A stretch of 54,041 nt of DNA from Candidatus Woesearchaeota archaeon (GTDB taxonomy: Archaea > Nanobdellota > Nanobdellia > Woesearchaeales > UBA12501), in contig JAWOBY010000021.1 of NCBI GenBank assembly GCA_046484055.1, positions 1 through 54,041 of the forward strand, given 5' to 3'. Of the stretch, positions 12,400-37,330 are shown piece by piece; positions within the stretch are counted from its first letter, which is position 1, and the number at the start of each line of letters is the position of its first letter. The notes under the pieces are model-generated. The model was given only the letters and a program-made list of their open reading frames with translations. It was not told where the DNA came from and searched no databases. The translations under genes were made by a program, and so were the position numbers.

Positions 12400-12409
12400 T
12401 AAAACATAA

Positions 12410-12626
12410 TAAAAATTTGACCATTATTTGACAAGCAAGCCCTAACTGCACCCTCAAGGTTCCAAAACTTGTTTTTGGAACTAAGAAAATACTTCGTATT
12501 TTCTGTTGGTGCAGTATTCACGGGCTTGCATTATTGATGGTCAAATTTTTAGTCTTGAAAATTTCGACCTGAAGGTAGGGGTGTTAGACCCCTTGGAAAA
12601 TTTCTCCTTCCAGTCGAAATTTTCAA
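12410..12626. repeat. Nested palindromic intergenic element, copy A (two adjacent multi-hairpin units)
   Basis: 15-bp IR TAAAAATTTGACCAT (12410-24) / ATGGTCAAATTTTTA (12537-51) encloses GCAAGCCC/GGGCTTGC, ACTGCACC/GGTGCAGT and two hairpins; a second 14-bp IR TTGAAAATTTCGAC/GTCGAAATTTTCAA spans 12555-12626. Confidence 0.85.
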
Positions 12627-12647
12627 TAAGATGGGGGTTTGATAAGA

Positions 12648-12800
12648 ATGATAGACTGGCTCGTGACACTGATGATAATACTTCTGATAGTCTTTGCGGC
12701 TGCGAGCATAATAAAGTTCTTCGCGAGATTCCTGCTCAAGCTGGGGATCTTCGCCTTCCTGGTGTTTGCGGCGCTTTACCTCATGAGGGTTGCAGTTTGA
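12648..12800 (+). CDS. 50-aa two-TM small membrane protein (not in ORF track)
   Basis: MIDWLVTLMIILLIVFAAASIIKFFARFLLKLGIFAFLVFAALYLMRVAV*, SD-like GGGGGT upstream, genome-typical codons. Confidence 0.65.
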   Translation: MIDWLVTLMIILLIVFAAASIIKFFARFLLKLGIFAFLVFAALYLMRVAV

Positions 12801-12888
12801 AGATTTGATAGACACAGGACATCCTTGTAATTATTGTTGAGTAGTTAAAAAACGAAAAAATTATAAACCAGCATTGCATAATCCATTT

Positions 12889-13647
12889 ATGGCGAAGCAA
12901 ATAATATATCTGTTGAGGCATGGGCAGACCTTCTGGAATGCTGAAGACAAAAAGAAACACCAGACACATTCAGATGGATATGGGAATCTTCTTACTGAAG
13001 AGGGAATTAAGCAAGCGCATTACGCCGCCAGATTATTGGAGGATGTTGATTTAGATTATGCATTCCACACTCCACTGAAGAGATCAAAGCAAACATTGGA
13101 TATTATTCTGAAGTATCATCCCGAAACAAAGATTTCTGAAAAGCCAGAACTTAGGGAGATGTCGATGTCATTTCTTGACGGGATGACACAAGAGGATTGG
13201 GAGAGAGAATTTCCAGAGACTAAACCATTATATAATAACAGAAAAAAGGATAAGTTTGGCTGTAAAGTCCCGGAGGGAATCGATTATTCAAGCTGTATTG
13301 AAAGAGCTAAACAGATCGCTGAGGAGAACGGCGAATATGGAAAGGTCATCCCCCCATGGGAAAATTATGCTGATGTAGTAAAAAGAATTGGAGAAAGTTT
13401 CATCCCTGAATTAGATATGATGGGGGATTGTTCAATAGTCATTTCCGGACACCAGGGGGTGAACAGAGCGCTATTGGGGAATCTTTTGGCTGGATCCATC
13501 CACCTTCCAGAAATGAGAGGGATTGTAAACTTAGAGACGCCTAACGCAGTAATTTTCAGAGTTGAAAGATCCCAAGATGGAGTCAGATTATACCATAATG
13601 AGGAGGGTGACTGGTCTTATGGATTTATAGGTGAAAAAAATCAATAA
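12889..13647 (+). CDS. Histidine phosphatase (phosphoglycerate mutase-like) family protein
   Basis: YLLRHGQT, LTEEGIKQA, PLKRSKQT, LRE, ISGHQG; ATG at 12889 downstream of TTATAAA. Confidence 0.88.
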   Translation: MAKQIIYLLRHGQTFWNAEDKKKHQTHSDGYGNLLTEEGIKQAHYAARLLEDVDLDYAFHTPLKRSKQTLDIILKYHPETKISEKPELREMSMSFLDGMTQEDWEREFPETKPLYNNRKKDKFGCKVPEGIDYSSCIERAKQIAEENGEYGKVIPPWENYADVVKRIGESFIPELDMMGDCSIVISGHQGVNRALLGNLLAGSIHLPEMRGIVNLETPNAVIFRVERSQDGVRLYHNEEGDWSYGFIGEKNQ

Positions 13648-14356
13648 AAAGAAAATCCTTTTTGAATTTGATTTTGACAAGACCCTTGCAGATGCTTTTG
13701 AGATACAAAAAGAAGCATCAAAGGCCATTTTCGAGCCCTACCCTATTGAAGGGGATATGACTCTTGTGGATTATGAGGGAAGCACCCACTACCACATAAT
13801 AAGGGACTGCCTGAGAAAAATAACAGGAAATGCCCCCTCTGAGGATGAAACACAAAAGGCGAAAGACAGGTGGGTGGATGAGATCAAGAGATTGTCATCC
13901 AAAAAACCTATCAGGGTTTATGAAGGGGTTAATGATGTTCTCTCTATACTCCAGGAAAATGCTTTTTTGGGATTAGTGACAGGGAACCCAAGCGATATAG
14001 GATTCCTCCTTCTTGAAAAGAGCGGCCTACTGCAGTTTTTCCCGGAAAAAACAAGGGTTTATGGGGAAATGTTCGGGGAAGAGAACAGGGTGGGAGGAAT
14101 CAAAAGATGTTTAACAGAATCCTCACAATATTATGGTGTCAATTTTCATGCATTGGTTTATGTAGGGGATAGTGTGAGAGACATTGAAGCTGGAAACAAT
14201 GCTAAAAAGGTTATCCCCATAAAGATTTATAGTGCAGGGGTTGCACATTCTGAAGAAAGAAGTTTGGAGAATCTATCATTCAAGGATGCTGATTTTGCTT
14301 TCAGGGATTTTAAGGATTATGAAAGAGTGACAGATTCCCTGTTGGAATGCATATGA
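13631..14356 (+). CDS. HAD-superfamily phosphatase
   Basis: Motif I FDFDKTL, motif II VTGN, motif IV YVGDSVRD; overlaps upstream gene. Confidence 0.88.
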   Translation: MKKINKKKILFEFDFDKTLADAFEIQKEASKAIFEPYPIEGDMTLVDYEGSTHYHIIRDCLRKITGNAPSEDETQKAKDRWVDEIKRLSSKKPIRVYEGVNDVLSILQENAFLGLVTGNPSDIGFLLLEKSGLLQFFPEKTRVYGEMFGEENRVGGIKRCLTESSQYYGVNFHALVYVGDSVRDIEAGNNAKKVIPIKIYSAGVAHSEERSLENLSFKDADFAFRDFKDYERVTDSLLECI

Positions 14357-14395
14357 ATCTTTCGCGGGACCTATAGAAATCCTGATGGAAAGCCC

Positions 14396-15568
14396 TCAGA
14401 ACCTCCCAAGACACTCCCTTATCCCTTCTACAGTCCTCTTCAATGGATACCTTGTCTCCATTGTCTTCCTGGCCATCCTTCCTATCCCCCTCCTCAGCTC
14501 AGGCCTTTCTATGAGCTTGTCCAGCTTCTTCGCCAGGATCTGCCAGTCCCCCCTCTCAAAATGGTAGCCGTTCTTCCCGTCATTGATGTAGTGCTCCACA
14601 TGACCCACTTTTGTGGCCAGGACCGGAAGACCGCAGGCCATGGCCTCCATCGTTGCCAGTGAGGATGTCTCTGTGAGGGACGGGAGTACGAAGATGTCCA
14701 TCGCCTTCAGCTGGTCCTGTATCCTGTTTGACACAGGTATGTGTATGACATCATCCATGCTGTCGAATATGCTCTCGAGCGGAAGCCCCTTCCCCACTAT
14801 CATCAGCTTGAGGTTGTCATGCTTGCTCTGTAGAGCCCTGAAAGCCCTGTATAATGTGCCGAGGTCCTTCTCCCTCCCCACCCTTCCTGTAAAACCTATT
14901 ATAGTGCTTTCCTTATCAACGCCCGCATGCTCCTTCGCCTTCTTCTTATCTTTGGCAGGCGTGAATCTTGAGGTGTCGATGCCGAGATGGATCACCTTTA
15001 TAGGGGAGGATATGCTGTTCTCCCTGAAAAGCTTTTCAGTGTCAATGGACGGCGCGATGAGAAGGTCCGCCTTGTTGTACATCCATCTGGCAAGTTGCCT
15101 GACTATGTAGCGCGCGAAGAACATGAGCTTTGAGGCGCTCTTGGGCACGAGCTCCCATTCTATGGAGTGTATGAATGAGATTACGGGCTTCTTTTTCTTT
15201 TTGGCATGCTTCATCGCAAGATATCCTATCGGCCCTATGCTCTGGCTGAAGACAAGGTCGTGCTCCTTCACAAGCTCTTTTATCCTCCCGGGCCTGAACT
15301 TCGGCGGTGTGTAATCACCCCAGCTGAAGCCGAACACAGGTATCCTTACGATACTCACACCTTTCATGCTCACCCTGCTTCCCCTGAAATCAGGTGCCAC
15401 TATTGTTATGTCATAATCCTTCTTCAGGCGAGGGATCATCTCTGAGAGGAATCTCGCTATCCCATCCCATCTCGGCAGGAAGCTGTCTGATGCTATAAGC
15501 AGCTTCTTCTTTCCCTTACTCCCCTTTCCTGCCTTGTTCCCTTTTCCTGTTTTGGTGCCTTTTTTCAT
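14396..15568 (-). CDS. Glycosyltransferase family 4 (GT-B)
   Basis: SDSFLPRWDG, GRVGREKD, FVLPSLTETSSLATMEAMACG (Ex7E). Confidence 0.92.
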   Translation of the reverse strand: MKKGTKTGKGNKAGKGSKGKKKLLIASDSFLPRWDGIARFLSEMIPRLKKDYDITIVAPDFRGSRVSMKGVSIVRIPVFGFSWGDYTPPKFRPGRIKELVKEHDLVFSQSIGPIGYLAMKHAKKKKKPVISFIHSIEWELVPKSASKLMFFARYIVRQLARWMYNKADLLIAPSIDTEKLFRENSISSPIKVIHLGIDTSRFTPAKDKKKAKEHAGVDKESTIIGFTGRVGREKDLGTLYRAFRALQSKHDNLKLMIVGKGLPLESIFDSMDDVIHIPVSNRIQDQLKAMDIFVLPSLTETSSLATMEAMACGLPVLATKVGHVEHYINDGKNGYHFERGDWQILAKKLDKLIERPELRRGIGRMARKTMETRYPLKRTVEGIRECLGRF

Positions 15569-15576
15569 GATCCTGT

Positions 15577-16392
15577 TCAGCTGTTTAGCAGATTTTTGAG
15601 GTAAGCCAGCTGTCTCCTGAAATTCTTCTCCCTCTCCTTCAGGTTTGCCAGCTTGAAATGTTTGCCCTTTCTCACCACGAATGTCTCCAGTGTGACAGTG
15701 CCTTCATAACCTGCCTTCCCCATCCAGCGTATGACTCTGTTCCAGTCTATCTTCCCCCTGCCCACAAAAAGATGGTCATCATCCTCGCCCATATTGTCAT
15801 GCATGTGCACATGCTCCAGCCTGCTCTTCCCTTTCAGTATGAAATCCCTTATGTTCCTCTCTCCGGGAAGATTCGCATGGCCTATGTCCAGATGGAGCTT
15901 CAGTCCCGGCACAGCCCTGAGCACTCTGTTGAATTCGCTGAATGTCTCGAAAGGATAACCATTCTCCAGCATCAGCAGCTGGCCGTTCTTTTTCGTGTGC
16001 TTTATTATCTCTTTCAGGGATCTCACATGCTGCTCCCTCACAAACTTATCGCCCAAAGCTGCCTTCACAGTCACGTCAGGATGCACATTGACCTTTTTCA
16101 CGCCCATCCGCTTAAGGATGTCCGATGACCTCATTATGTCTCTTACAGCCGCTTTCCTCACGTTCTCGAATTCATGCGCTATGGGCAGCCTCCAGCATGT
16201 GTGGCCCACAAGATCCATGCTGTATTTTCCCGCAAGCTTTTTCACGCGCTCAGGCCTTATTTTTTCAGGAGAAGGCACAGGGTATTCCACTGTAAAGTCA
16301 ATGAATGAAAGGCCAAGCCTGCGCGCGAATGCGAATTCCTTCTCTATGGCCCTGTAAGGGCTGTTCATCATTCCGAGTTTCATCTGTCCCAT
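15577..16392 (-). CDS. Sugar-phosphate isomerase/epimerase (AP endonuclease 2 TIM barrel) family
   Basis: LMLEN, HLDIGHA, HVHMHDN...DDHL, G.G.IDW, TLE metal-binding motifs. Confidence 0.88.
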   Translation of the reverse strand: MGQMKLGMMNSPYRAIEKEFAFARRLGLSFIDFTVEYPVPSPEKIRPERVKKLAGKYSMDLVGHTCWRLPIAHEFENVRKAAVRDIMRSSDILKRMGVKKVNVHPDVTVKAALGDKFVREQHVRSLKEIIKHTKKNGQLLMLENGYPFETFSEFNRVLRAVPGLKLHLDIGHANLPGERNIRDFILKGKSRLEHVHMHDNMGEDDDHLFVGRGKIDWNRVIRWMGKAGYEGTVTLETFVVRKGKHFKLANLKEREKNFRRQLAYLKNLLNS

Positions 16393-16437
16393 GATCTTTA
16401 TCTCACATCAATTTAGATTGCTTTAGTTTATCCTGGC

Positions 16438-17175
16438 TCACCTTATCTTATAAAACACCTCGGCATACCAGCAATGGTTCATTATGCCGTTCTTTATGGC
16501 CCTGTAATACACGCTCCAGAGCAGGGAGAGCATGGCCAGCTTCTGGCTCTCGAAGCAGCGGAGCGCTTTTATCTTGGTCCCGAAGGTCTTGCTTATGTCA
16601 ACCACCATCCTCGGCAGGTTCCTTTCCTTGAACTTGAGGGGGTTCCAGACATCAAAAGAGTAGACATCACCATTGTAGCCTATGTTATCGCAGAAGCTGA
16701 GCACAAAATCGTTGAGCGCCTTATGGTCCGGATGGGGGTCATCTCCCGCATGGGTGAAAACCTTTGAAGGCCTGTACTTCCTGAAAGTTTCCGCGAGCCT
16801 TGAGCTTATATCCCTCTCTTTTATCTGCTCCTCGAATCTGCCTTCTTTTATGCCGTAGAAGAATGTCTTTTGAGCGCCGAGTATCTCGGATGCTTTCCTG
16901 CTCTCGCCCACCCTCATCTTCGCTGTCACCTTCTTTTTCAGCCAGGGGTGGCTCTTCTCGCCGTAAGAGAATATGATTATAATGACCTTCTTGCCCTCCT
17001 GGGCATACTTTGCAAGGGTGCCTCCCGCACCGAGGACCTGATCGTCAGAATGGGCGCATAAAGCAAGAACGGTCTCTTTCCGTCCTTTCCGTCTTCTGAC
17101 GGCTTCATTCATCCCTTCCGGGGCGCTATCTGCTGTTCCTTCCCCTTCTCCAGCCCCTTTCTTCCTCCCTGCCAT
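16438..17175 (-). CDS. PIG-L/LmbE family N-deacetylase
   Basis: AHSDD..LGAGGT, THAGDDPHPDH, KIKALRCFESQ. Confidence 0.9.
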   Translation of the reverse strand: MAGRKKGAGEGEGTADSAPEGMNEAVRRRKGRKETVLALCAHSDDQVLGAGGTLAKYAQEGKKVIIIIFSYGEKSHPWLKKKVTAKMRVGESRKASEILGAQKTFFYGIKEGRFEEQIKERDISSRLAETFRKYRPSKVFTHAGDDPHPDHKALNDFVLSFCDNIGYNGDVYSFDVWNPLKFKERNLPRMVVDISKTFGTKIKALRCFESQKLAMLSLLWSVYYRAIKNGIMNHCWYAEVFYKIR

Positions 17176-17263
17176 AATGAAGCGGTGATAACCCTCTCTC
17201 TTTTTTTATATTTTTCTGAAAGCCGGCTGTGCAGCATTAGAATCCTGCAGGAGTCCGGAATAA

Positions 17264-17583
17264 TTAAAATGTGACCATTATTTTGTCAAAACCTACGGTT
17301 TTTTCCCCTTTGTGTTCAACTGAAATCATTTAAACAGTTGAACACAAAGTATAAGCAAGCCCTATCCCCTACCTGAAGGCAGGGGTGTTACGGGCTTGCA
17401 TTATACTTGCAGATCATGATTTGCAAGTCTTAAAATCCCAGACGCTTGACTAAGCGAAGCTTAGGCAAGTCTTATAATCTCGACTTCAGTCGGGATTATA
17501 TTTAAGCTAGTGAGTCGGGATTTTATATAGATGGTCACATTTTAAGCCTTACTTGCAAATTTTTTTGCAAGTCTGAAAATCCC
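17264..17583. repeat. Nested palindromic intergenic element, copy B
   Basis: 15-bp IR TTAAAATGTGACCAT (17264-78) / ATGGTCACATTTTAA (17531-45) encloses GCAAGCCC/GGGCTTGC (17355-99) and at least 6 hairpins; a further hairpin lies at 17551-72. Confidence 0.85.
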
Positions 17584-17715
17584 TGACTTGAAAGAAGAGG
17601 TATTGCGCTATTTGTAATAAAACCTGGTGTCAAAAGAGAAACAGAAAAAGAAAGAGATATTGAGTGTCAAAAGAAAAGGATGAATGAGATGCCAATGAGC
17701 TGAAGCGATCCGGAA

Positions 17716-18177
17716 TCATCTGGTTTTGGCCGCGCCCGCCTTCTTACTGCCCACCTTCTTACTGCCCGCCTTCTTACTGCCCGCCTTCTTACTGCCCGCC
17801 TTCTTTTTTGCTCCGCTATTTTTCTGCCACTTGAACTTATAGTCTATCCTGTTCTTCCTGAGATATTCCATGAACTCATCATAGGTGTGGAAAGAGAGCT
17901 TTTCAGCATCACCCTCACCATTCCGCACGCATTCATCAGGAGAATAATCCCTGCAGATTACAGGCCTGCTCTCATGGTGGATGCACATGCCCTTCTGCCT
18001 CCACTCGCAGGGTGTGGAGAACTCTATGTACCAGTCATTCTCGTCATCGACGAATACCTTCACATCCTTGTGCAGGAGGAACCACAGTATCTCATGATAA
18101 TCCCTCTTGGAAGTAGGCCTGTCGATCTCAACAGCCACATGATTGCAGCACCCTCCGCAGTTCTTGCACTCTGCCAT
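17716..18177 (-). CDS. YkgJ/CxxCxxCC cysteine-cluster protein with Lys-rich repeat tail
   Basis: CKNCGGCC ... CEW...C.IHESRP.ICRDY; C-terminal (KKAGS)x5. Confidence 0.88.
   Translation of the reverse strand: MAECKNCGGCCNHVAVEIDRPTSKRDYHEILWFLLHKDVKVFVDDENDWYIEFSTPCEWRQKGMCIHHESRPVICRDYSPDECVRNGEGDAEKLSFHTYDEFMEYLRKNRIDYKFKWQKNSGAKKKAGSKKAGSKKAGSKKVGSKKAGAAKTR
17734..17805. repeat. 15-bp in-frame tandem repeat (4.8 copies) encoding KKAGS
   Basis: GCCCGCCTTCTTACT units. Confidence 0.9.
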
Positions 18178-18273
18178 GATAAACCATCCCAGAGAGGTCG
18201 TTTATATTGTTTTCTGTCTGTAAAAAATACAGCTTAAGGATACACAGCATGATAAGGATAAGAAAATGACAAG

Positions 18274-18561
18274 CTATTTATCTTCCTGCGCTTCATCCCC
18301 TTCTGAAGCCTCCTGCTTCTGCTGCGGCATGAACTCAAGAGCTTTCTGGAGCATTGGAATCACCGCTTCGGCCTCCTCCCTGAGCATCCTTCCCAGCTTG
18401 GCGAACTTCCACTCCCCTGTAGTATTGTCCAGTATCTGCCTGCTTATCTGTATCTTGGGCTCGCCGTCATTGTAGGAAAAGACCCCTACTGTTATCTTCG
18501 CTGTCTCAAAGCTTGCTGTCTCTGAAAAAAGCTCCTTGTCAAGACTCTTATCGAATGCCAT
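18274..18561 (-). CDS. Small conserved-type protein, possible PC4/p15-like ssDNA-binding fold
   Basis: Beta-rich TVGVFSYNDGEPKIQISR...WKFAKLGRM followed by a helix; SD GGAGGT; fold call is by pattern only. Confidence 0.65.
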   Translation of the reverse strand: MAFDKSLDKELFSETASFETAKITVGVFSYNDGEPKIQISRQILDNTTGEWKFAKLGRMLREEAEAVIPMLQKALEFMPQQKQEASEGDEAQEDK

Positions 18562-18627
18562 ATTATCATTACCTCCCTGTTGTTCATCTCAAATCGTTGT
18601 GTGTCCCAAAGCGTACTCCATGCCTAG

Positions 18628-18844
18628 ATAATCCCGACTCAGCAAGCTTCGTCCGGGATTACTGTCAAACTTAGTTTGACAGGCCTGAAAATGCTTGCAT
18701 TTTCAGTATCACGCATCTCAAAGCAATTTTTCCGACTAAATGTTTTATTATTTCCAATGCGTAGAAAATTCCGACTAAAGTCGAAATTTTCATGCATCCA
18801 AAATGGCGAAATTCCGACGCTGTCTGGAATTTAGCCATTTTGTA
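18628..18844. repeat. Palindromic multi-hairpin element, copy C, abutting the tRNA 3' end
   Basis: Hairpins TAATCCCG/CGGGATTA, CTGTCAAAC/GTTTGACAG, CTGAAAATGC/GCATTTTCAG, GAAAATTCCGAC-TAAA-GTCGAAATTTTC, CAAAATGGC/GCCATTTTG. Confidence 0.8.
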
Positions 18845-19025
18845 TGCGCCGGCCGGGACTTTCGAACGAGGGTTTTACGACTTAAGTCAACCGACGGATT
18901 TTACTGCGCAAACCCTCAAGTTTTCGAACCCGGATCAAAGGCTCTCTTCGCCCTGGCCTGAGGCCGGCGGATTATGGACCCGGATGCGTGGAAGGCCTCT
19001 ATCCTAGCCATTAGACTACCGGCGC
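18845..19025 (-). tRNA. tRNA-Gly(UCC) with two introns (18944-18988 at 37/38; 18859-18922 at 59/60)
   Basis: Spliced sequence GCGCCGGTAGTCTAATGGCTAGGATAGAGGCCTTCCA|AGCCTTTGATCCGGGTTCGAA|TCCCGGCCGGCGCA folds to a 72-nt cloverleaf; both junctions form bulge-helix-bulge-type motifs; no encoded CCA. Confidence 0.92.
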
Positions 19026-19059
19026 AAATATTTAAGTGTTATGGATGGAAAATGTCACA

Positions 19060-19075
19060 TTTATAAAGCTTTCTC
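19060..19075 (-). promoter_or_regulatory. BRE/TATA promoter of tRNA-Gly
   Basis: Minus strand GAGAAAGCTTTATAAA ~35 nt upstream of the mature 5' end. Confidence 0.7.
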
Positions 19076-19077
19076 AA

Positions 19078-20112
19078 TCATAAGGCCTTTTCAAGCTCTT
19101 CCAGAAACTTCTTCGCATCATCTGCTTTGACGCAGGCCCCGCATGCATGCTCATGGCCCCCTCCATATCCCTCAACATCATTGAGGGCCTTTTCTAAAGC
19201 AGGGGGGATAAGCTTATCTGTGGCCCTTATGCTGAACTTGATCTCTCCTGCCTTCTCTCTCCCCACTATTATTATCTTTGAGGGGTATTTGTAGAGGAGC
19301 TCGTTCGCAAGCTCGCTGGAGAAGCTGTACTTCTCACCTTTGTATATGAACACGACCATCATCTTCTTTGTTACTTTTTCCAGTCCTTTGCTGAGCAGCT
19401 CGTCATAATACCTGTTTATCATCTCATAACGCTTGTGGATGAATCTTCCCTTGGGAGTCTTCTGGTCCAGTATCTCGTAAGGGCTTTCTATGCGGGTCAG
19501 GACCTTCATGCATTTGATGACCTCACTGGTAGCGCCCTTGAGCACGAAAGAGAAAACCTTCACCAGCTCGCCGAGCCTTGATGCGAAAAGGGCGTCCTTC
19601 TGCTCTTTGATACTCTTGTCAAGCAGGTCAGGATATTCTTCTATGAAATCATTCCAGTAATCGGGCTTCTGCCAGTCTCCTATGGCGCCGACCATGGCAA
19701 TCCAGATATCCCTCTTCACCACTTCATAGCACACTCTTGTTATGCATGTGTCATCATCAGGGTCATGCTTCCGCGGGTTGAATGTGACTGCATGCTGCAC
19801 AGGCGCAGGATTGTGGTGGTCTATCCAGAAGCACGGCACATTCAGCTCTGCCACCTTATCAAAGAACTCCTGGTCCACGACAGGCACATCAAGTATGAAC
19901 ACCTTGTCGGGACCGTATTCCTCCACTTTTTTTGCGAACCTCGAATCCATGCCTGGGTGGGTCTTGACGACAATCCCCTTCCCTTCAATCTTGTAGCGGT
20001 AGAACAGGAGGAAGCTGCACAGGCCGTCAGCATCATCATGGAAGAAGAACAATGGCCTCTTGCAGTTGTCAAGCTCTTCCCTGATTTTTGTGATCTCGTC
20101 TTCCGGAATCAT
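19078..20112 (-). CDS. DHH/DHHA1 phosphoesterase (RecJ/NrnA/GAN-like)
   Basis: HDDADG, ILD, IDHH, GGGH. Confidence 0.92.
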   Translation of the reverse strand: MIPEDEITKIREELDNCKRPLFFFHDDADGLCSFLLFYRYKIEGKGIVVKTHPGMDSRFAKKVEEYGPDKVFILDVPVVDQEFFDKVAELNVPCFWIDHHNPAPVQHAVTFNPRKHDPDDDTCITRVCYEVVKRDIWIAMVGAIGDWQKPDYWNDFIEEYPDLLDKSIKEQKDALFASRLGELVKVFSFVLKGATSEVIKCMKVLTRIESPYEILDQKTPKGRFIHKRYEMINRYYDELLSKGLEKVTKKMMVVFIYKGEKYSFSSELANELLYKYPSKIIIVGREKAGEIKFSIRATDKLIPPALEKALNDVEGYGGGHEHACGACVKADDAKKFLEELEKAL

Positions 20113-20253
20113 TTTAGCACGCCAAACAAAAAAATATTAAACAAACACCCTGTCTTACAAGCGTCTTAGGGCATCTGGATATGAAGGGAAACTTGTAATA
20201 TAAGCATCGAACAAGAGCATTTTTTAAGCTTTGCGGTCAAACCGGTCCGCCTG

Positions 20254-20958: not shown

Positions 20959-21569
20959 CCTTTTATCCTCTTGAGCCTGAAGACATTCTCCCTCTCCATC
21001 TCCTCAAGCCTGAACCTGATGAACTCCACTGTCTTCTCCATCTCAGGTATGACCGCGAACTCAAGAGCATTCACCCTTCTCTTTGTCTTCTCTATCTCCT
21101 GAAGCATCTTCTTCATTGATGTCTCAATCTCCGCGGCCTCTATTATCTTCTCCACCACCCTCTCATAGGCGGAAGCGGCTTCCTCTATGGAGAATGAGCT
21201 CTCTGCAAGGCCGTAACCCCTCTCGAACATGGTCTTCTGGAGGCCTTCGCTCTCGATCCTGGGCACTGTCACACCCATTATGTTCTTTGTCTTCAGGCTC
21301 ACCTCAGGCTCTGACGTTATGGCCATTGCCATGGACCTTATCTTCTCGTCCGACTCAGTAACCCTCGCTATGTTCATCGCATTGACTGCCTTCTTGTACT
21401 CCTCCACCAGCTCCTGCCTGAGAGTCTTGGCCTTCTTGAGTATCTCGAAGAAATCGAGTATGAGTCCGTCCCTCTTCTTCTTCAGGAGATTGTATCCTGA
21501 ATTGGCCAGCTTCACCTTGTTCTTGAGCTTTATCAGCTCGCTCCTTGTGGGTTTCACATCAAGCGCCAT
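20955..21569 (-). CDS. atpD: A/V-type ATP synthase subunit D
   Basis: KPTRSEL, LLKKKRDGL, TKRRVNALE, EMERE..FRLK. Confidence 0.96.
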   Translation of the reverse strand: MALDVKPTRSELIKLKNKVKLANSGYNLLKKKRDGLILDFFEILKKAKTLRQELVEEYKKAVNAMNIARVTESDEKIRSMAMAITSEPEVSLKTKNIMGVTVPRIESEGLQKTMFERGYGLAESSFSIEEAASAYERVVEKIIEAAEIETSMKKMLQEIEKTKRRVNALEFAVIPEMEKTVEFIRFRLEEMERENVFRLKRIKG

Positions 21570-30038: not shown

Positions 30039-30136
30039 TTTCCTTTCGCTAGGTCCTTTTGCTGGACAACCCCCTCATGACATGTTTGATGATTGTATGC
30101 TTGATAATAATGATCATATGCTTGTTACATCTGATT

Positions 30137-30206
30137 CTTCAATCTGTCTCCTCTTCAATCTGTCTCCCCTTCAATCTGTCTCCCCTTCAATCTGTCTCCC
30201 CTTCAA
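30137..30206. repeat. 16-bp tandem repeat (4.4 copies) duplicating the atpH stop codon region
   Basis: CTTCAATCTGTCTCCC units; the minus strand reads GAA GGG GAG ACA GAT TGA. Confidence 0.92.
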
Positions 30207-30513
30207 GCTTTTTGAGAATGAGCTCCTCTGCTTTCCCTGAGTTGTCCTTTGCCTTCATCTCTATCCTTTCCGCCTCTTCCCTGCCCTTCCTTGTTATCTC
30301 TTTTTTCTTGTCTTCCAGCTCCGCCGATTTTTTCCTGAGGAGCTCGTCCATGTCCCTGTCTGTCTTCTCTTTCTTCTGCTGGAGGCGGTCCATGGATTCC
30401 TGGTTGGCCTTGCTGATCATTTCAGACCTTCTTTTTTCAGCATCCTCCACTATCTTCCTCGCCTTCTCTTCAGCGTCCTTGATGTCCCTGATCGCGTTAT
30501 CCATCTTTTCCAC
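30187..30513 (-). CDS. atpH: A/V-type ATP synthase subunit H/G (peripheral stalk)
   Basis: Charged coiled coil IKDAEEKARKIVEDA; first gene of the operon. Confidence 0.85.
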   Translation of the reverse strand: MEKMDNAIRDIKDAEEKARKIVEDAEKRRSEMISKANQESMDRLQQKKEKTDRDMDELLRKKSAELEDKKKEITRKGREEAERIEMKAKDNSGKAEELILKKLEGETD

Positions 30514-30700
30514 CTTCTGTCAGTCTTATTAATATGCAAAGCTTACCATTGAGTGTGCAAAGGTATGCAGGATATTCCCTTTCTATTAGGGGGACCTTAT
30601 AAAGTTATACTAAATAGTCTATTTAGTTCTCGTTATCATGGTTGTTCTTATGCTTTTTCACCCAACTGCCCGGCCATCCTTATTGTTTTCGCGACCATGT

Positions 30701-31594
30701 TCATTGCTCCACCAGGTTGGTCACCGCCCAGTCCATCAGCACCTCGCTTATGCTGCCGAAGTAATGCCTGACTCTTATCTTGTAGTACGATTTTATGTCC
30801 ACTACCTTGTCCTCCTTCATCCTGAATATCTTCCTGGCGAATTTTATGACATAATTGTAATCCAGGCTCTTTTCAGGGTCAAGGGCCACTTCTATCACAT
30901 CCTTCAGGGAACTCATGAGTTCTGTTATGCTCTCGATGAATGCCTTGTCCTTCCTGTCCACCAGTATGAGGTGGTCCACCATCCTCTCAAGATCCTTCGC
31001 TATCAGGCTTATGTAATGCAGGTTTATGGTCTTCATCCTGGTCTCCCTGTTGAATGTTATGGAGCTTATCACAGACTTGTCTATGAGCAGCCTGTTGCGG
31101 TCTATTTCCTCCTCGTAACGCTGTATGAGCTCCTCATTGTAGTTCCTTGTCATCACGATGAGCATGTTCTTTATCTTGCTCACCAAGGTCCTCAGGAGTA
31201 TGTCAGGCTCGCTGACCCCGAATGATGACTCGCAGGTCACCTTCTTGCCCTCTATCTCCATGAGCTCCACAGAAAGAAGCCGTTTCTGATCAAGGAGCTT
31301 CCTCTGGTCCAGTGCCTTCTCAAGATTGATAGTGAATGAGTCGAGAGGGTTGATATAGCACGCGACCACCAGCTTGTTTATTATCTCAAGATTGTCCTCG
31401 CTTACAGAAAGGTTTATCTTTTTCCGTTTCTTGTCGACAAGCTTGGGGGTGATCACCAGGCTGCCGCCGCTGCCCTGTCTGATGCCGACTTTTGAGGCAG
31501 CGCCTATCTTGTGCTCCCTGCACCATGAAGTGGGGAGATACATGTAATGCATGTCCCCTGTCTTCTGTATCTTTCTTATGTCCATACTATCCAT
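30701..31594 (-). CDS. AbrB-domain PhoU-family phosphate uptake regulator
   Basis: IRKIQKTG...LPTSW (AbrB), VACYI, YEEEIDR, KDLERMVDH (PhoU). Confidence 0.85.
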   Translation of the reverse strand: MDSMDIRKIQKTGDMHYMYLPTSWCREHKIGAASKVGIRQGSGGSLVITPKLVDKKRKKINLSVSEDNLEIINKLVVACYINPLDSFTINLEKALDQRKLLDQKRLLSVELMEIEGKKVTCESSFGVSEPDILLRTLVSKIKNMLIVMTRNYNEELIQRYEEEIDRNRLLIDKSVISSITFNRETRMKTINLHYISLIAKDLERMVDHLILVDRKDKAFIESITELMSSLKDVIEVALDPEKSLDYNYVIKFARKIFRMKEDKVVDIKSYYKIRVRHYFGSISEVLMDWAVTNLVEQ

Positions 31595-31995
31595 ACTAAA
31601 TAGGTGGCAAATACCACCTATTTATAAATCTTTTCATATACCATTATAAATCATGACACAGAGAAACGGCTGAAAGCAGTAAAATTAAGGAAAGAACAGG
31701 CCTGATTTAAATGTTTCTGAACACCTGAAATGAGAATCTGATGAGGCATGTAAAAAAGGGCATGAAAAACCATATAGTAGGAGAAAAACCATGGTATGAG
31801 AATACAGTGGATTGCACGCCGGACCATCCTCTAACAGAGAATGCCTTAACAGATTGCCTTAACAAATAGTCAAACAGCGCCTGAACAAATAGGCGTATGT
31901 AAAACATTTAGGGATTCCCGCTCTTTAGCCATACATCAGCCCTACATAAAACATTTGGGTTGTATTAATCAATGACCTGCAAAAAACAGCGCATC

Positions 31996-32202
31996 ATGGG
32001 ATTCCAGGAGATACAGCAGATAATGATCTATTTCTGCATATTCATAACAGGCCTCATAGCGGGAAGGCTGTCCATGGCGATACAGTATGCGGTGATGAAA
32101 AGCCCGGATGAAGAGGGCTCAGGCCGGAAAGGACAAGGAGAGAAAGGCCAAAAAGATCAGGCCAGGAATGAGCAGGAGCATGAAAACCGCCGGAAGAAAT
32201 GA
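31996..32202 (+). CDS. Small membrane protein with charged tail
   Basis: MGFQEIQQIMIYFCIFITGLIAGRLSMAIQYAVMK..., one TM helix. Confidence 0.6.
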   Translation: MGFQEIQQIMIYFCIFITGLIAGRLSMAIQYAVMKSPDEEGSGRKGQGEKGQKDQARNEQEHENRRKK

Positions 32203-32440
32203 TAAGCCGGCGGAAGGAATGATAAGGCAAAACAAGAATAATAAGACAAAACAAAAGACAATGATATAACAAATACAAAATATTGACACAGGATGATAGC
32301 GGGAAAAAAAGAAAAACAATAGGAGACAGAAAAACAGGAGGATAGCATGAAAGGATCCAAAAGAATCAAAATATTTAAATATTCATGATGCGGAATGCCT
32401 GAAATCAGGACAAGAAAGATTAAAAGAGGAGAAAAAAAGA

Positions 32441-32947
32441 GTGAAATCAGTGAGACCGAGGAAAGCGCAGGCGGGAAAGGTCTTCATGTATGCTCTCACA
32501 CTGATAGTGGTGGCCATGATACTTCTGTTCGGATACAAGGCGATAGCTAAAGTGACAGAGACATCAGAAGCAGCCACAATGGCGCAGTTCAAGAACAACC
32601 TGAGGAACAAGATAGACACCGCGTCATCCCACGGCAGGATAACCACAGAAGAGTTCGAGACCCCTATGAAATTCAAGGCGATATGCTTTGTGGCAGAGGA
32701 CAATCCTGACGATCTCAATCGGGAATTCGTCCAGGATTACCCGTGGGGCGCTGATGTGGCAGACTCCCCTGACAACGCCTTCCTTTTTGACGGCCAGAAC
32801 ATAGACCCCTTCAAGGTGGACAATTTTGAGATTGACGATGGGGATGAGTTCGCATACGGGCCTGACGCATTGTGTGTCCCGATAAACAACGGCCAGTTCA
32901 GCCTCAGGCTTGAGGGTCTCGGCGACAGGACACTGATAAACAGTTAA
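32441..32947 (+). CDS. Class III signal-peptide (pilin-like) protein
   Basis: RKA/QAGKVFMYALTLIVVAMILLFGYKAI; two Cys in a beta domain. Confidence 0.75.
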   Translation: MKSVRPRKAQAGKVFMYALTLIVVAMILLFGYKAIAKVTETSEAATMAQFKNNLRNKIDTASSHGRITTEEFETPMKFKAICFVAEDNPDDLNREFVQDYPWGADVADSPDNAFLFDGQNIDPFKVDNFEIDDGDEFAYGPDALCVPINNGQFSLRLEGLGDRTLINS

Positions 32948-33120
32948 GACATAAACAGTTAAAACACAACCAAGAATCTGAACATCTGAATGATGGGAAT
33001 CACCACAATATTTATAAAAAAGCCCTAGAAACCCAGAACAGTAAGAACATAATTGAAGGTTAAGACAATAATCAACCAAACCAATAGATAAGTACAAAAA
33101 ACCAGTGAGGGGGTGTTTTG

Positions 33121-35082
33121 ATGAACATAATATTGCCGATAGTTATAAGTATTCTTGCTCTCGCTTTCGCGGGGCTGACAGCGTGGAGGGTGATGAAGAA
33201 GTCCGCGGGCAACGCGAAGATGAAGGATCTCTCACAGATGATCTATGAGGGTGCGATGACATTCCTCAACAGGGAGTATAAGATACTCTCCATATTCCTT
33301 CTGGTGGTGGCGGTCATACTCTACTTTGTGATAGGCCGTGAGATAGCCATCGCCTTCATCTTCGGGGGAATATTCTCCGCCCTTGCAGGCAACATAGGGA
33401 TGAGGATAGCAACAAAAGCGAATGCGAGGACAGCTGCGGGAGCTAAAAGATCAGTCAATGAAGGGCTGGGTATAGCATTCTCATCAGGAACAGTCATGGG
33501 GATGTGTGTTGTCGGCCTCGGCCTGCTGGGGGTTGCATCCCTCTACTGGATATTCGGGGACCCGCAGATAATATACGGCTTCGGTTTCGGAGCGTCATCG
33601 ATCGCCCTGTTTGCAAGGGTGGGCGGAGGAATATACACAAAAGCAGCTGATGTCGGAGCTGACCTTGTAGGAAAGGTAGAGGCAGGGATACCTGAGGATG
33701 ACCCGAGGAATCCGGCGGTCATAGCAGACAATGTCGGCGACAATGTCGGAGACGTAGCGGGCATGGGCGCTGACCTCTTTGAGAGTTATGTGGACAGCAT
33801 GATAGCAGCGATGGTGCTGGGAGTGAGCATGACCGCAGCCGCAGACAATTCATATGTGATGCTTCCCATGGCGCTCGCAGCCTCAGGGATAGTCGCCGCA
33901 GTGGCCGGCACATTGTTCGTGAAGACCACGGGGAAAAGCAGGATACATTCAGCGCTCAACAAGGGAGTGTTCGCAAGCTCTATCCTGATGATAATATTCG
34001 CCTTCATCATAATAAGGTACATGGTGGGCGAGATGGGCATCTTCTATGCTACTATCTCAGGGCTTATTGCCGGAGTTGTGATAGGCCTCTCCACAGAGTA
34101 TTACACATCGAATGACAGGAAGCCCGCGCAGAAGATCGCGGAAGCGTCAAAGACAGGAGCTGCAACAAACATAATACACGGCATCGCAACTGGAATGATC
34201 AGCACGGTCATACCTGTTCTTGCGGTCTGCGCTGCAATCTTCCTTGCATACTATTTCGCAGGGATATACGGCATCGCGATAGCCGCAGTGGGCATGCTCA
34301 GCACGCTGGGGATAACTCTTGCTACAGACACTTACGGCCCTGTGGCAGATAACGCTGCAGGAATCGCGGAGATGGCAGGAATGGGCAAGGAAGTGAGAAA
34401 GAAGGCGGAAAGCCTCGACGCTGTAGGCAACACCACGGCAGCGATAGGGAAAGGTTTCGCCATAGGATCCGCAGCCCTCACAGCCCTCGCATTGTTTGTG
34501 AGCTACACAGAACTCACAGGGCTTTCAGGCATAAACATCAGCAGCCCCAATGTGATCATAGGCCTGTTCATAGGTGCGGTGATGCCTTTCGTGTTCTCTG
34601 CAATGAGCATGAGCGCTGTGGGCAACGCAGCGTATGACATGGTTGAAGAGGTCAGGAGACAGTTCAAGAGCATCAAGGGCCTGATGAAAGGAAAGACAAA
34701 GCCGGATTACAAGCGATGTATTGACATAAGCACTACAGCTGCCCTGAAGGAGATGGTGATCCCGAGCCTGCTTACAGTGCTGATGCCGATAATAATCGGG
34801 CTGACACTGGGAGCAGAGGCGTTGGGGGGTCTTTTGGCAGGAGCGATCTCGACAGGATTCCTTCTTGCGGTCTTCATGGCCAACTCAGGCGGAGCGTGGG
34901 ACAACGCAAAGAAGTACATTGAGGAGGGCCATTACGGCGGCAAGAATTCAGAATCCCACAAGGCGGCTGTGGTGGGCGACACAGTAGGCGACCCTTTCAA
35001 GGATACCTCTGGGCCGAGCCTGAACATACTCATCAAGCTGATGAGCATAGTTGCCCTTGTCTTCGTGCCATTGTTCATATGA
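33121..35082 (+). CDS. hppA: K+-dependent, probably Na+-translocating membrane pyrophosphatase
   Basis: [40 protein letters not shown] (Ala = K+-dependent), [14 protein letters not shown]. Confidence 0.96.
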
Positions 35083-35208
35083 GCATTATGTGGGTGCCGG
35101 CTAAACAGGTATCGGTGAACAGAAAGCGGACAATATGGCAATGATCTGTTTTTTATTTTTTTATCTATTTACTTTTTATGTTTCTCATCCTTTCCTGTAT
35201 TGCTTCAG

Positions 35209-35784
35209 TCATTTCTGAAGAATCATCTCCCTGGGCTCAAGAGAGATTATATCATAATCTGTGCGCTTTATCTCTTCCTCGCTGAGGATGATTGAGTCCT
35301 TTTTGGCGATGTACTCGCAGCACACGAACAAACCCCCCTCCCTGGTGCGGCTGTAGGCGCTGTGCATTATTTCAGAGGCCCAACCCTTGAGCATGGTTTC
35401 AACCATCTTTTTCCCGTCCTCATGATTCATGAGTGAATGATACACCATCGGGCCGTACTTGTCCCTGAACCTGTTGAGCTGGGCCTGCCTGCACATCACC
35501 CCGTTCGCTATTACCATGTCTAATCTTTTGCCGCCCATCATGCTTTCCATGTCACCCGCGTCTGCATGGATGAGGTATTCATCCGAGAAAGAGCGGTTTA
35601 TGTCCACCCCAAAAGCATCAAATCCTCTCTCCCTCAGGGATTTGACATAATCACCACTGCCGCAGCCTATCTCAAGGACTGAATCGATGGGGTGTTCAGC
35701 GCAGAGGGATGTGACAAGCTCATCCATCCTGCTGTAATGCGCTAGCGGATCCACCGCATCCCTCATTATTGCTAATTGGCCCAT
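35209..35784 (-). CDS. Class I SAM-dependent methyltransferase
   Basis: VLEIGCGSG, GVDI, ADA. Confidence 0.82.
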   Translation of the reverse strand: MGQLAIMRDAVDPLAHYSRMDELVTSLCAEHPIDSVLEIGCGSGDYVKSLRERGFDAFGVDINRSFSDEYLIHADAGDMESMMGGKRLDMVIANGVMCRQAQLNRFRDKYGPMVYHSLMNHEDGKKMVETMLKGWASEIMHSAYSRTREGGLFVCCEYIAKKDSIILSEEEIKRTDYDIISLEPREMILQK

Positions 35785-36012
35785 ACTGCAGGGTGCAGAA
35801 CTCCTATTTATAAAGCTTTCGTTTTTTAACCACTATAAAGTAATAATTAATTTCGTATCGTAGCGCCCAGATGGGCCTGAATATACAGTGGCATGCACCC
35901 GGATACAAACTGCCTGCCCCAAAACACATACTCCTGCAGGATTTCACAAAACTTTTTATATGAATTATTGATATATTCCCCTATGAAACGGATTGTCAGG
36001 AAATTCTCAAGG

Positions 36013-36402
36013 ATGAAAGACAATGTAAAGGACAGGATTGCGGGCAGGGAATACAAGCAGGTGATCCTTATGAGAGAAGACCTCAAGCTGCCCAAGGGAA
36101 AGATGGCTGTCCAGGCAGCGCACGCCTCAGTGAGCGCACTGATGGACGCGCAGAGGAGAGGGGACGATGATATCATCCACACGTGGAAAGAACAGGGCAT
36201 GAAGAAAGTGGTCCTCAGGGCCGGAAGCCTCAATGAACTGAAAGAATACGAGAAGCAGGCAAGGATAAGGAAGCTCCCCGCCGCGGCCATAACAGACGCG
36301 GGCAGGACAGTGGTGGAACCAGGGACAACAACCTGCCTGGGAATAGGGCCTGCAGAAGAGAAGAAGATTGATGAGATCAGCGGAAACCTGAAATCCTATT
36401 AA
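36013..36402 (+). CDS. pth2: Peptidyl-tRNA hydrolase Pth2
   Basis: KQVILMREDL, GKMAVQAAHA, KKVVL, DAGRT, TCLGIGP. Confidence 0.95.
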   Translation: MKDNVKDRIAGREYKQVILMREDLKLPKGKMAVQAAHASVSALMDAQRRGDDDIIHTWKEQGMKKVVLRAGSLNELKEYEKQARIRKLPAAAITDAGRTVVEPGTTTCLGIGPAEEKKIDEISGNLKSY

Positions 36403-36437
36403 GATCATATCAATAAACAATCTGAAAGGCGATCATT

Positions 36438-37049
36438 TTGGCAGAGAACCGCAATGCAATCGAATACCCCTCTCCGGCCCATGTGGTTAAGTGTTTCTTC
36501 AAACCTGAGATGTACAGGCCTGATATGAGCGTGAACACTCTTGAAGACATTGACACAGCCCTGCTTGAACAGAGAGAAGGGATCCACTCGTACATACTCG
36601 ACGCTGACCACACCCTTCTCGGATTCAATGACTGCAGTATTGATGAGAGAGTGGCAGAGAGGTTCAATGAGATGAGGAAGTCATACGGGCTGTGCATACT
36701 CACCAACAGCCCAGGTTACAGGAGGAATAAGCTCGCGGATCATTTCAGGGAGATAGATGTGAAAGTTATAGAATCAGAGTATCTGAAACCAAGACTCAGA
36801 GCATTCAACGACGCGCTGTCATATCTGGGAGAGAGGCCTTCCAATACCTCATTGGTGAGTGACATGCTGATAGACATATTCGGCGCGAACCTCGCCGGAA
36901 TCTACTCTGTGAAGGTTGAACCGATGGGGATTGAGCATTCCCCCCTCCCCGTAAGAGCAGTCCTTGGTGTTGACAGGGCATTAGCTGCTGCAGCCCGGAT
37001 GTTTTATAGCGACACTCCTGAGAGGGATATACAGAAGAGCGGCCCATAG
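36438..37049 (+). CDS. YqeG-like HAD IIIA phosphatase
   Basis: ILDADHTL, ILTN, KP, SDMLIDIFGANLAG. Confidence 0.82.
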   Translation: MAENRNAIEYPSPAHVVKCFFKPEMYRPDMSVNTLEDIDTALLEQREGIHSYILDADHTLLGFNDCSIDERVAERFNEMRKSYGLCILTNSPGYRRNKLADHFREIDVKVIESEYLKPRLRAFNDALSYLGERPSNTSLVSDMLIDIFGANLAGIYSVKVEPMGIEHSPLPVRAVLGVDRALAAAARMFYSDTPERDIQKSGP

Positions 37050-37141
37050 AAGAACAGATCATGAAACACGAGGGTATGAAAGATGAGGGCCATAAGAGAT
37101 AAAGGGATATAAAATAACAAAAACTCGCCGCTCGGAGCTGA

Positions 37142-37330
37142 TGCAAATCATTTCGGATTTGCAGGCCTTAAAATACCCTGCATTTTTATGAGGTTCCAAA
37201 CCTTGTTTTTGGAACTAAGAAAATACGGAGTATTTTCTGTTGGCGGAGTTTTACGCTCCTCGCCTTGAGAGGCGAGTTTTTGGATTTGAAAATGCTGCGC
37301 AATTTTCAAATAAGGAGTGTAAAGAATGCA
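37142..37330. repeat. Nested palindromic intergenic element, copy D
   Basis: 37191-37243 matches 12457-12509 at 49/53 nt; further hairpins TGCAAATC/GATTTGCA, TTTACGCTCCT/AGGAGTGTAAA, CTCGCC/GGCGAG, ATTTGAAAAT/ATTTTCAAAT. Confidence 0.85.

Follow-up and report, generated by a model that had tools for sequence, protein, structure and literature searches.

The stretch of DNA analyzed here (the window) is a contig of 54,041 nucleotides, C4, from a metagenome-assembled genome (MAG) of a woesearchaeotal archaeon, G000, and it carries four loci, termed A to D, that are built of hairpins. These loci belong to a family of modular DNA elements that is dispersed through the genome; its members have sharp ends and are nested in one another, certain hairpin loops are filled with a further unit in some copies and empty in others, and one site is without its element in related genomes. 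Some of the hairpins are also found at the ends of an insertion sequence (IS) of the IS200/IS605 type that resides in the same genome, and they vary together with the local IS in two genera. We judge, at a probability of about one half, that the loci are transposase-less elements that derive from, or co-evolve with, such IS, and that they resemble the palindrome-associated transposable elements (PATEs) and the SMR-A repeats of Haloquadratum walsbyi. The MAG comprises 1,435,985 bp in 88 contigs and is 87.7% complete. It encodes a TATA-binding protein with two repeats, a family that among the control genomes matched only the four archaeal ones, which marks the genome as archaeal.

Folded as single-stranded DNA, all four loci are far more stable than their dinucleotide shuffles, with z-scores of -12.9 for A, -11.8 for B, -9.4 for C, and -7.5 for D, and no shuffle folded as well as its locus (0/200 for A, C, and D; 0/100 for B). 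A preliminary description, made from the letters of the window, had seen the loci as hairpin-built with interchangeable modules, and the modules that it listed are all present. A and B have in common the scaffold AAAAT(T/G)TGACCAT...ATGGTCA(A/C)ATTTT, with a complementary T/A versus G/C change, and both hold ACCTGAAGG(T/C)AGGGGTGTTA. A and C both hold GAAAATT.CGAC / GTCGAAATTTTCA, while B and C hold ATCCCGACTCA..AGCTT in opposite orientations. The double hairpin common to A and D extends over 62 nt at 89% identity in one comparison and over 53 nt at 92.5% in another. The sequence GYCTKAAAAT does lie 3' of hairpins in all four loci, but what had been taken for a linker is really the first arm of the next hairpin.

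Recurrence in G000 was scored as non-self blastn-short matches at E<=0.01. Locus A has 63 such matches on 30 contigs, B 43 on 18, C 13 on 7, and D 59 on 29, so that modules recur on 7 to 30 further contigs of the MAG; identities range from 85.7 to 100%, and 20 mononucleotide-shuffled query sets gave 1 match altogether. When the genome was compared with itself, 164 regions (26.9 kb) proved to be repeated at least 3 times elsewhere, and 109 of 144 merged regions, or 22.4 kb, form one network joined by common segments of at least 20 nt. The network was built by single linkage, which means that an unrelated MITE (miniature inverted-repeat transposable element) beside or within its members is also pulled in. 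Since 31 of the 109 regions are at contig ends, the true number is higher. Within the window, a GC-richer repeat of another type at 3995-4060, with at most 9 other self-comparison matches, is in the network through single linkage only.

Two types of element, named D and S, reveal how a unit is put together. Sixteen copies of the D type carry the left anchor in unrelated flanks and all start exactly at ATAACAAAAACTCGCC, and 11 copies are full length and end at GCAATTTTCAAATAA. The S type, to which A and B belong, starts with ATAAT followed by (T/A)AAAAT(G/T)TGACCAT, and element termini carry ATAATTAAAATGTGACCAT.... In 21 of 21 cases the S-type arm ATGGTCA(C/A)ATTTT(A/T) is followed by AG(T/C)C and a second hairpin, which is either TTACAAATAGCGC...GCGCTATTTGTAA or TTGAAAAT...ATTTTCAA; then comes TAA, and then unrelated DNA. 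Taken together, the two plans define the unit as ATAAY, hairpin 1, a 4-nt linker, hairpin 2, and TAA. Its size runs from 75 nt in the smallest copy (C66:2663) to about 450 nt, the bigger copies holding further units in their hairpin loops. The unit is geneless and too short for a transposase, and open reading frames (ORFs) appear inside it only under naive ORF calling. Palindromes are found near both termini in both types, with hairpin 1 lying 5 nt from the left end and hairpin 2 stopping 3-4 nt short of the right one. The hairpins at the two ends differ from each other, although both stems start with AAAAT-rich sequence, which gives a weak inverted likeness. The arms of S-type hairpin 1 are complementary at two variable sites, in 18/18 pairs at one (10 T/A and 8 G/C) and in 16/18 at the other. 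Inner units of 48-58 nt follow the same plan, a hairpin, 2-3 nt, a second hairpin, and TA or TTTA. The claim of a combinatorial, non-autonomous, dispersed DNA family is upheld by copies throughout the genome, sharp ends in unrelated flanks, and the filled and empty paralogous hairpins and the element-free orthologous B site described below.

The position of the elements relative to genes was counted with crude gene calls in which the elements were masked, as naive ORF calling gave spurious ORFs of 70-100 aa inside them. The 78 network regions with genes on both sides divide into 43 in tandem, 25 divergent, and 10 convergent gaps, against 929, 272, and 273, respectively, among 1474 background intergenic gaps. 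Sixteen of 21 S copies are oriented toward the start of the downstream gene. Repetitive extragenic palindromes (REPs) of bacteria usually lie at gene 3' ends, unlike the placement seen here. The pattern of position and orientation may reflect selection or a near-promoter role.

Paralogous copies differ by whole units inside their hairpins, and their comparison gave 166 filled/empty pairs with 96 distinct inserts. A unit of 102-104 nt and four hairpins, U1, sits directly after CC-TAAA in the loops of different host hairpins. The host hairpin H1, CTCCGCCC-TAAA-GGGCGGAG, is empty in 11 copies and filled by U1 in 3, and 2 more filled copies are cut by contig ends (C29 and C63). H2, CTGAAACC-TAAA-GGTTTCAG, is empty in 3 copies and filled by U1 in 4. 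A third host, H3, holds the right half of U1 (51 nt) in locus A and is empty, with a TAAA loop, in an S-type element of metagenome contig L049. No bases are duplicated at the joints of U1 with H1 to H3, and the same is true of a 58-nt unit. The ends of U1, CGCTCAAAAATC and AACAGAAAATAC (the reverse complement of the 3' end), agree by eye at about 7 of 10 positions. Other inserts are accompanied by direct repeats of 2-4 nt, namely TA at the 49-nt U3, TAC/TTAC at the 53-nt U4, TATA at the 120-nt unit of B, and CT at the 77-81-nt U2; these may be duplications, chance, or the footprints of deletion between short repeats. Joints such as 17283>17351, present in short contigs from four DNA runs, match paralogous copies.

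The link to IS200/IS605 elements comes from hairpins that modules and IS ends have in common. The right-end hairpin of the IS of G000 is CTGAAACC-TTTA-GGTTTCAG, which on the other strand is the host hairpin H2, and G000 has six copies of a nested scaffold of three layers with H2 as its core. At the left end of the IS the inner stem is CTTTGAGC/GCTCAAAG, which apart from the 2 IS copies is present in G000 solely in 7 S-type copies. In 6 of these 7, the hairpin CCCCTACC-TTTA (or TTCA)-GGTAGGGG follows 39-97 nt downstream on the same strand, so that in six S copies the left stem and right hairpin are arranged and oriented as they are at the two ends of the IS. In G001, a genome of another genus, the IS has CCCCAACC-TTTA-GGTTGGGG as its right-end hairpin; this hairpin has 5 further sites there, and all 5 are cores of S-type scaffolds. 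The core hairpin of locus B, CCCCTACC-TGAA-GGCAGGGG (17364-17386, plus strand), is related to IS200-type right-end hairpins such as that of G001. Among the four closest relatives of the IS, three of which have 46-51% protein identity, the right end is made up of a varying stem, a TTTA loop, and then AG(G/A)AGGTCAT, and 3 of the 4 also have a TTTA-loop hairpin at the left end. Among the perfect hairpins of the G000 network, the tetraloop met most often is TAAA/TTTA, at 15/80 versus 9/480 elsewhere, in copies that are not independent of one another. The preliminary description had pointed to a likeness to IS200/IS605 ends, and this is strengthened by the finding that the right-end hairpin of the resident IS is itself a module, likewise in a second genus.

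Seven transposase families of Pfam were searched in G000, with matches solely on contigs C25 and C8, which agrees with the earlier statement that the window is without a transposase. There is no match in the genome to DDE_3, rve, OrfB_IS605, the TnpB TNB domain, or the IS110-type family. One DDE_Tnp_1 gene is present (C8:64-894), and beside it lies a separate family, a 176-nt classical MITE (C8:980-1160; 12-20 copies genome-wide) whose ends are inverted (GGGTCTGTCCC...) and which has CTGTTATCTT as a direct repeat of 9-10 bp. The genome also has one Y1_Tnp gene (C25:9062-9496) for a protein of 144 aa, which scores 89.5 bits against the NCBIfam model NF033573 transpos_IS200 (cut-off 55) and 51 bits against NF047646 REP_Tyr_transpos (cut-off 80). 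By these scores the protein is classed as a TnpA of the IS200/IS605 type and not as a REP-associated tyrosine transposase (RAYT). Its motifs DHLH, WS, and YIRNQEHHH fall between the signatures of subclasses 1.1 and 1.2 as they appear in PMC6006769, with an exact fit to neither. The Y1 gene is found in an element with hairpins at both ends, and a second copy of this IS, on C46, still has 96 nt at the left end, the final 45 nt of the ORF, and its right end. Such an internally deleted copy implies that the IS moved and that its core was then deleted. The flanks of the Y1 gene match only this deleted copy, and of them solely the right-end hairpin is shared with modules. Being unflanked by repeats and having a deleted second copy, the gene behaves as an IS; the preliminary description had suggested a look for a transposase gene flanked by the same hairpins, and the Y1 gene that does exist in the genome is outside the window.

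Modules of the D type are present in 12 of 40 related genomes (10/16 of the same family and 2/24 of other families), and B modules are present in 4/16 genomes of the family. A 97-nt part of B (17434-17530) has at least 6 copies in G001 with 91-95% identity, and it is found in G011 with 86-91%. Neighboring genes, compared over a 4.2-kb stretch, have 68-81% identity to G001, G009, G011, and G016. This excess of module identity over gene identity means either that elements move between lineages or that they are constrained. Whole two-hairpin elements of the S type are carried by metagenome contigs L049 and L051, and the genes of L051 are only 71-77% identical to those of G000. The exact S-type arm motif occurs 37 times in G000, and none of 200 further genomes of the order has it more than once; the order as sampled comprises at least 136 families, with genomes of 0.6-2.7 Mb. 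In species-representative genomes, a 20-mer was found at 6 loci on 5 contigs of a single other MAG record and in 2 single bacterial matches that look like chance, and two module patterns had 0 matches in viral contigs. The 10-mer ACCTTTAGGT is uninformative, as its counts in 40 relatives are near those of the reversed-pattern control in most (7 vs 2 in G000, 11 vs 4 in G001).

The gene order around locus B, with a PIG-L gene, a CxxC gene, a 95-aa ORF, a tRNA-like gene, and a DHH gene, is kept in G001 and G011, and G016 and G009 keep the order from PIG-L to DHH with no CxxC gene detected. The spacer between the PIG-L and CxxC genes measures 540 nt with B in the window and about 60-80 nt, without the element, in G001 and G011. 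The comparison of orthologous sites called for in the preliminary description gives a B site without the element in two other genera, where the flanks have diverged too far to define an empty site to the base. At locus D, a pattern for the empty site had 0 matches in metagenome contigs, and the flanking protein had no orthologue at E<=1e-20 in the 16 family genomes.

The preliminary description went too far in regarding such elements as not described in archaea. In the parts of Dyall-Smith et al. (2011; PMC3119063) that deal with Haloquadratum walsbyi, PATEs are geneless, lack inverted ends, have palindromes near both termini, and cause no duplication, and some arise from IS605-type elements by core deletion mediated by repeats. 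SMR-A is described there as a repeat of about 110 bp that inserts, without duplication, in the near-terminal palindromes of PATEs and IS605-type elements, its mobilization being called 'enigmatic'. The elements described here are similarly too short to code, have palindromes next to both ends, with the two palindromes of one element alike, and occur in an archaeal host; their palindromes are akin to the ones that a resident IS200/IS605 element carries, and core deletions between short repeats and nesting are seen as well. They differ in that the host is a small-genome archaeon instead of a haloarchaeon, the search of G000 yielded no TnpB (IS1341-type) gene, hairpins are stacked up to three layers, the ends (ATAAY...TAA) are unlike those of the resident IS, and absence of target duplication is seen for inner units only. 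SMR-A is the closest match to the hairpin elements; U1 is 102-104 nt long and sits without duplication inside hairpins of the IS200/IS605 right-end type. SMR-A has prominent inverted terminal repeats, whereas the ends of U1 are weakly inverted, and the exactness with which U1 is inserted after the loop TAAA is not found stated for SMR-A in the sections on it. Both likenesses are drawn from these published descriptions.

All four loci are intergenic and lie among ordinary genes, and their limits have been corrected. Locus A, which extends from 12406 to 12629 on the plus strand, is a complete S-type two-hairpin element made up of ATAAT, hairpin 1 (arms 12411-12424 and 12537-12550), AGTC, hairpin 2 (12555-12626), and TAA. 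Within its middle stem, AAGCAAGCCC / GGGCTTGC, the host hairpin H3 (CTGCACCC / GGTGCAG) and its insert occupy 12446-12514 on the same strand, and the 51-nt double hairpin common to A and D (12457-12507, plus strand), which is the right half of U1, lies in the H3 loop. The closest copies of A are on C16 (93.6% over 156 nt) and C35 (86.6% over 157 nt), and its neighbors are an ORF without a name and a 50-aa ORF, with genes for superoxide dismutase and a histidine phosphatase further out. Locus D (37114-37313, plus strand) is a complete D-type element of ATAAC, hairpin 1 (AAAAACTCGCC..GGCGAGTTTTT) with nested units, GGAT, hairpin 2 (TTGAAAATGC..GCAATTTTCAA), and ATAA; it sits downstream of a HAD-type phosphatase gene and has a copy on C2 (98.4% over 189 nt). 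Locus B (17260-17620, plus strand) ends about 37 nt further on than first described.

Locus B is another S-type element, with ATAAT, hairpin 1 (arms 17265-17278 and 17531-17544), AGCC, hairpin 2, and TAA. Its hairpin 2 is of the TTAC..GCGCTATTTGTAA type and has both a U4 insert and a 38-nt internal deletion between ACTT repeats. A 67-nt insert of two hairpins (17284-17350, plus strand) in the loop of hairpin 1 is missing from most S copies, being filled in C4 and C17 and empty in two paralogues each. The 120-nt nested unit (17406-17525, plus strand) has TATA on both sides and an outer hairpin TTAAAATCCC..GGGATTTTA, and it is the 97-nt part of this region that recurs in the other genus. Copies of B are found on C57 (98% over 202 nt) and C17 (98.5% over 130 nt). 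It lies between a PIG-L deacetylase gene and a gene for a CxxCxxCC protein, whose C-terminal tail is encoded by 15-nt repeats (17734-17808) and exceeds the 119-120 residues aligned in G001 and G011.

Locus C (18628-18842) is not a two-hairpin unit and is instead an array of five hairpins and one repeat module, to which no strand is assigned. Hairpin 1 (18628-18661) has the stem ATAATCCC and the loop GACTCAGCAAGCTTCGTC. It is followed by hairpins 2 and 3 (18662-18706), CTGTCAAAC-TTA-GTTTGACAG and CTGAAAATGC-TT-GCATTTTCAG, which match C1 and C18 at 98.8% over 84-85 nt, by the repeat module with GCATCTCAAAGCAATTTTTCCGACT (18707-18763; k-mer count 8 on both strands), and by hairpins 4 and 5 (18764-18842), GAAAATTCCGAC-TAAA-GTCGAAATTTTC and CAAAATGGCGAAATTCC..GGAATTTAGCCATTTTG. 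The array is flanked by the 95-aa ORF and by the tRNA-like gene that adjoins the DHH gene, and it stops 3 nt short of the 3' end of the tRNA-like gene, which is on the minus strand. Hairpin 1 is also present at the syntenic place in G016, G009, and G011 with an altered stem and a conserved loop. This conserved 16-nt loop, GACTCGCAAGCTCGTC, contains a GCAAGC mini-hairpin and is syntenic in L041, L039, and L040 and present in L030 and L031, and hairpins of this type adjoin tRNA gene 3' ends in several genera. It is possible that this reflects tRNA-adjacent targeting or a role at the ends of tRNA transcripts. The tRNA-like gene itself (about 18846-19026, minus strand) has the acceptor GCGCCGG and long interrupting insertions and is conserved in place in G001, G011, G016, and G009. 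Because the anticodon loop of the syntenic copies holds CCA, it is probably a tRNA-Trp, although ARAGORN (18500-19150) and Rfam call no tRNA there.

Two further repeats were seen in the window. A 16-nt tandem repeat, CTTCAATCTGTCTCCC, has 4-5 copies at 30137-30216. A 38-nt inverted pair at 12830-12867 and 35807-35844, which is 79% complementary and AT-rich with TTTATAAA, looks like promoter-type sequence shared upstream of two genes.

Most likely, a Y1 enzyme moves the elements in trans, in the form of single-stranded DNA; we infer the enzyme, the single-stranded route, and the target rule from sequence. The Y1 (HUH) transposase, encoded once in the genome, would recognize hairpins with TTTA/TAAA loops on single-stranded DNA, cut the unit out, and paste it into single-stranded targets without duplication. 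Because hairpin loops are single-stranded, new units would often land in the loops of older ones and so give rise to hairpins within hairpins. Later deletions between direct repeats of 2-4 nt, together with exchange between look-alike stems, would then shuffle the modules.

Several observations weigh against this mechanism. One G of the 3' arm is lost at each U1 junction, which simple peel-and-paste does not predict. The resident IS has the cleavage ends TTCATTC... and ...GGAGGTCATT, to which none of the element ends corresponds; internal hairpins alone are common to both. Several inner units are flanked by TA, TAC, or TATA, and whole elements begin with ATAA and end with TAA, all of which could be target duplication by a DDE enzyme, while filled/empty pairs with microhomology could be deletions instead of insertions. 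The common hairpins could mean that modules invade or target IS ends, and not that the transposase moves modules. Folding energy has no clear strand asymmetry, the top strand being more stable in 9/11 D and 10/18 S copies. The Y1 gene is patchy in the 40 relatives, of which 12 have D-type modules, 9 have Y1, and 3 have both; in a set with many incomplete MAGs, it is found in 3/12 relatives with modules and 6/28 without. G011, at 91% completeness and with no fewer than 20 module copies, lacks a Y1 gene, and none of 13 Y1 loci of relatives is flanked by G000 modules, although three have one 17-nt match.

Alternatively, the elements may be classical cut-and-paste MITEs, for which a DDE transposase would bind the inverted arms (e.g., TTAAAATGTGACCAT) and duplicate TA or TAA, the enzyme now being lost or unassembled. 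We consider this rather improbable, even though the elements resemble prokaryotic MITEs in being small, non-coding, intergenic, and multi-copy with inverted arms, and S-type hairpin 1 provides perfect 15-bp inverted arms around a variable cargo. The ATAA and TAA of whole elements would also suit a DDE enzyme, as would the TA, TAC/TTAC, and TATA that flank U3, U4, and the 120-nt unit of B, the folding without strand asymmetry, and a MAG that is 87.7% complete and breaks at repeats. The inverted arms, however, are internal and not terminal. Hairpin 1 never occurs without hairpin 2 (21/21), which means that the arms are not the element ends, and the ends of the whole element are two different hairpins. 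U1 and the 58-nt unit are without duplication. No DDE_3, rve, IS110, or TnpB-type gene was found, and the sole DDE_Tnp_1 gene lies beside a different MITE, which with its 9-10-bp direct repeats looks unlike the hairpin elements. No pair of arms more than 372 nt apart surrounds a gene, the arm motif is confined to 37 sites in G000 and 0-1 per genome in the 200 others of the order, and no autonomous IS with the inverted repeats of the element was found in G000, these 200 genomes, or 3 metagenome contigs, an absence that is not proof with an incomplete MAG. It is also conceivable, if again unlikely, that the elements are mobile through an enzyme that is neither Y1 nor DDE, with SMR-A as the model, and that hairpins are in common since the repeats target IS200/IS605 palindromes. 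U1, with about 100 nt, weak inverted ends, no duplication, and a place inside IS-type hairpins, fits SMR-A as far as it is described in the relevant part of PMC3119063, and the presence of Y1 and that of modules are weakly linked across relatives. No candidate for such an enzyme was found, however, and co-evolution with the transposase is the simpler account of modules that match the IS right-end hairpin of their own genome in two genera.

A further proposal, and one that we hold to be very unlikely, is that the cell retains the hairpins chiefly for a function of its own, for instance as structured RNA, as protein-binding sites, or as signals for processing or for the ends of transcripts, and that their spread is secondary. 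The hairpin at the start of locus C lends it some weight, as its 16-nt loop is kept while the stem changes at the same place by the tRNA-like gene in four genera, and it is also found by other tRNA genes. Compensatory stem changes, modules that are more conserved than genes, the 16/21 S copies that point to a downstream gene start, and the over-representation of network regions between divergent genes (25/78 vs 272/1474 intergenic gaps with the crude gene calls) are in keeping with it. Against this, the family has more than 100 copies that lie in unrelated contexts and vary in presence and absence, relatives have no element at the B site, and folding energy shows no strand bias. The Rfam scan gave no family match to the loci, with nothing at the gathering score in the window and, at E<=1, generic hairpin matches far below threshold at two loci. 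The structured-RNA alternative of the preliminary description thus finds no backing in either the Rfam scan or the folding. Three other candidates were dropped: CRISPR as the spacing is irregular, integron attC arrays as there are no cassettes, and a single large RNA gene as the copies are modular and dispersed.

The REP systems of bacteria deserve separate comparison, as a likeness to REPs and REPINs had also been suggested. REPs, REPINs, and bacterial interspersed mosaic elements (BIMEs) (Nunvar 2010, PMC2817692; Bertels and Rainey 2011, PMC3116915; Quentin 2018, PMC6006769) similarly have many short intergenic palindromes in mosaics, a low-copy HUH protein of the Y1 type, and hairpin sequences that vary by lineage in step with the local Y1 element. 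The elements of G000 nonetheless fail the REP/RAYT definition. Their Y1 protein scores as an IS200 TnpA and below the RAYT cut-off (51 vs 80 bits), its gene is unflanked by repeats and has a deleted second copy, and reading of the module and host-hairpin sequences showed no consistent GTAG or CGTC tag. Among 172 archaeal genomes, the section of Quentin et al. (2018; PMC6006769) on archaea reports only Y1 proteins of the IS200-type subclass 1.1 and no REP-associated classes. A more ambitious idea, which must be called tentative and on present evidence doubtful, is that archaea may have here their own version of the REP-RAYT partnership known from bacteria. The population of hairpin elements would be maintained by an IS200-like Y1 enzyme of low copy number, the core hairpin would co-evolve with the enzyme across genera, and insertion would be structure-specific, at a fixed point of the TAAA tetraloop; certain copies may later have been taken over as signals beside tRNA genes and gene starts. 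Targeting of TAAA tetraloops was not found described for IS200/IS605 elements in the relevant parts of PMC3119063 and PMC6006769.

Full-text literature searches turned up no account of such elements for these archaea, although papers matching a search on miniature inverted-repeat elements of DPANN archaea were not assessed for relevance. What is new here is the anatomy of the unit, the loop-exact insertions, the cross-genus identity above that of genes, and the module cores that match the local IS right end in two genera. Small-genome archaea of this kind are regarded as streamlined; even so, nested selfish hairpins make up about 1.6-1.9% of G000. These hairpins break the assembly at about 30 places, which matters for binning and for the reading of intergenic 'RNA-like' structures. 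The exact pairs of filled and empty hairpins offer a test system for Y1 insertion into hairpin loops, and they may account for the 'enigmatic' small repeats of haloarchaea by which the ends of IS605-type elements are attacked. Finally, module identity above that of genes across genera points to recent exchange of mobile DNA between uncultivated lineages, or else to a constrained function.

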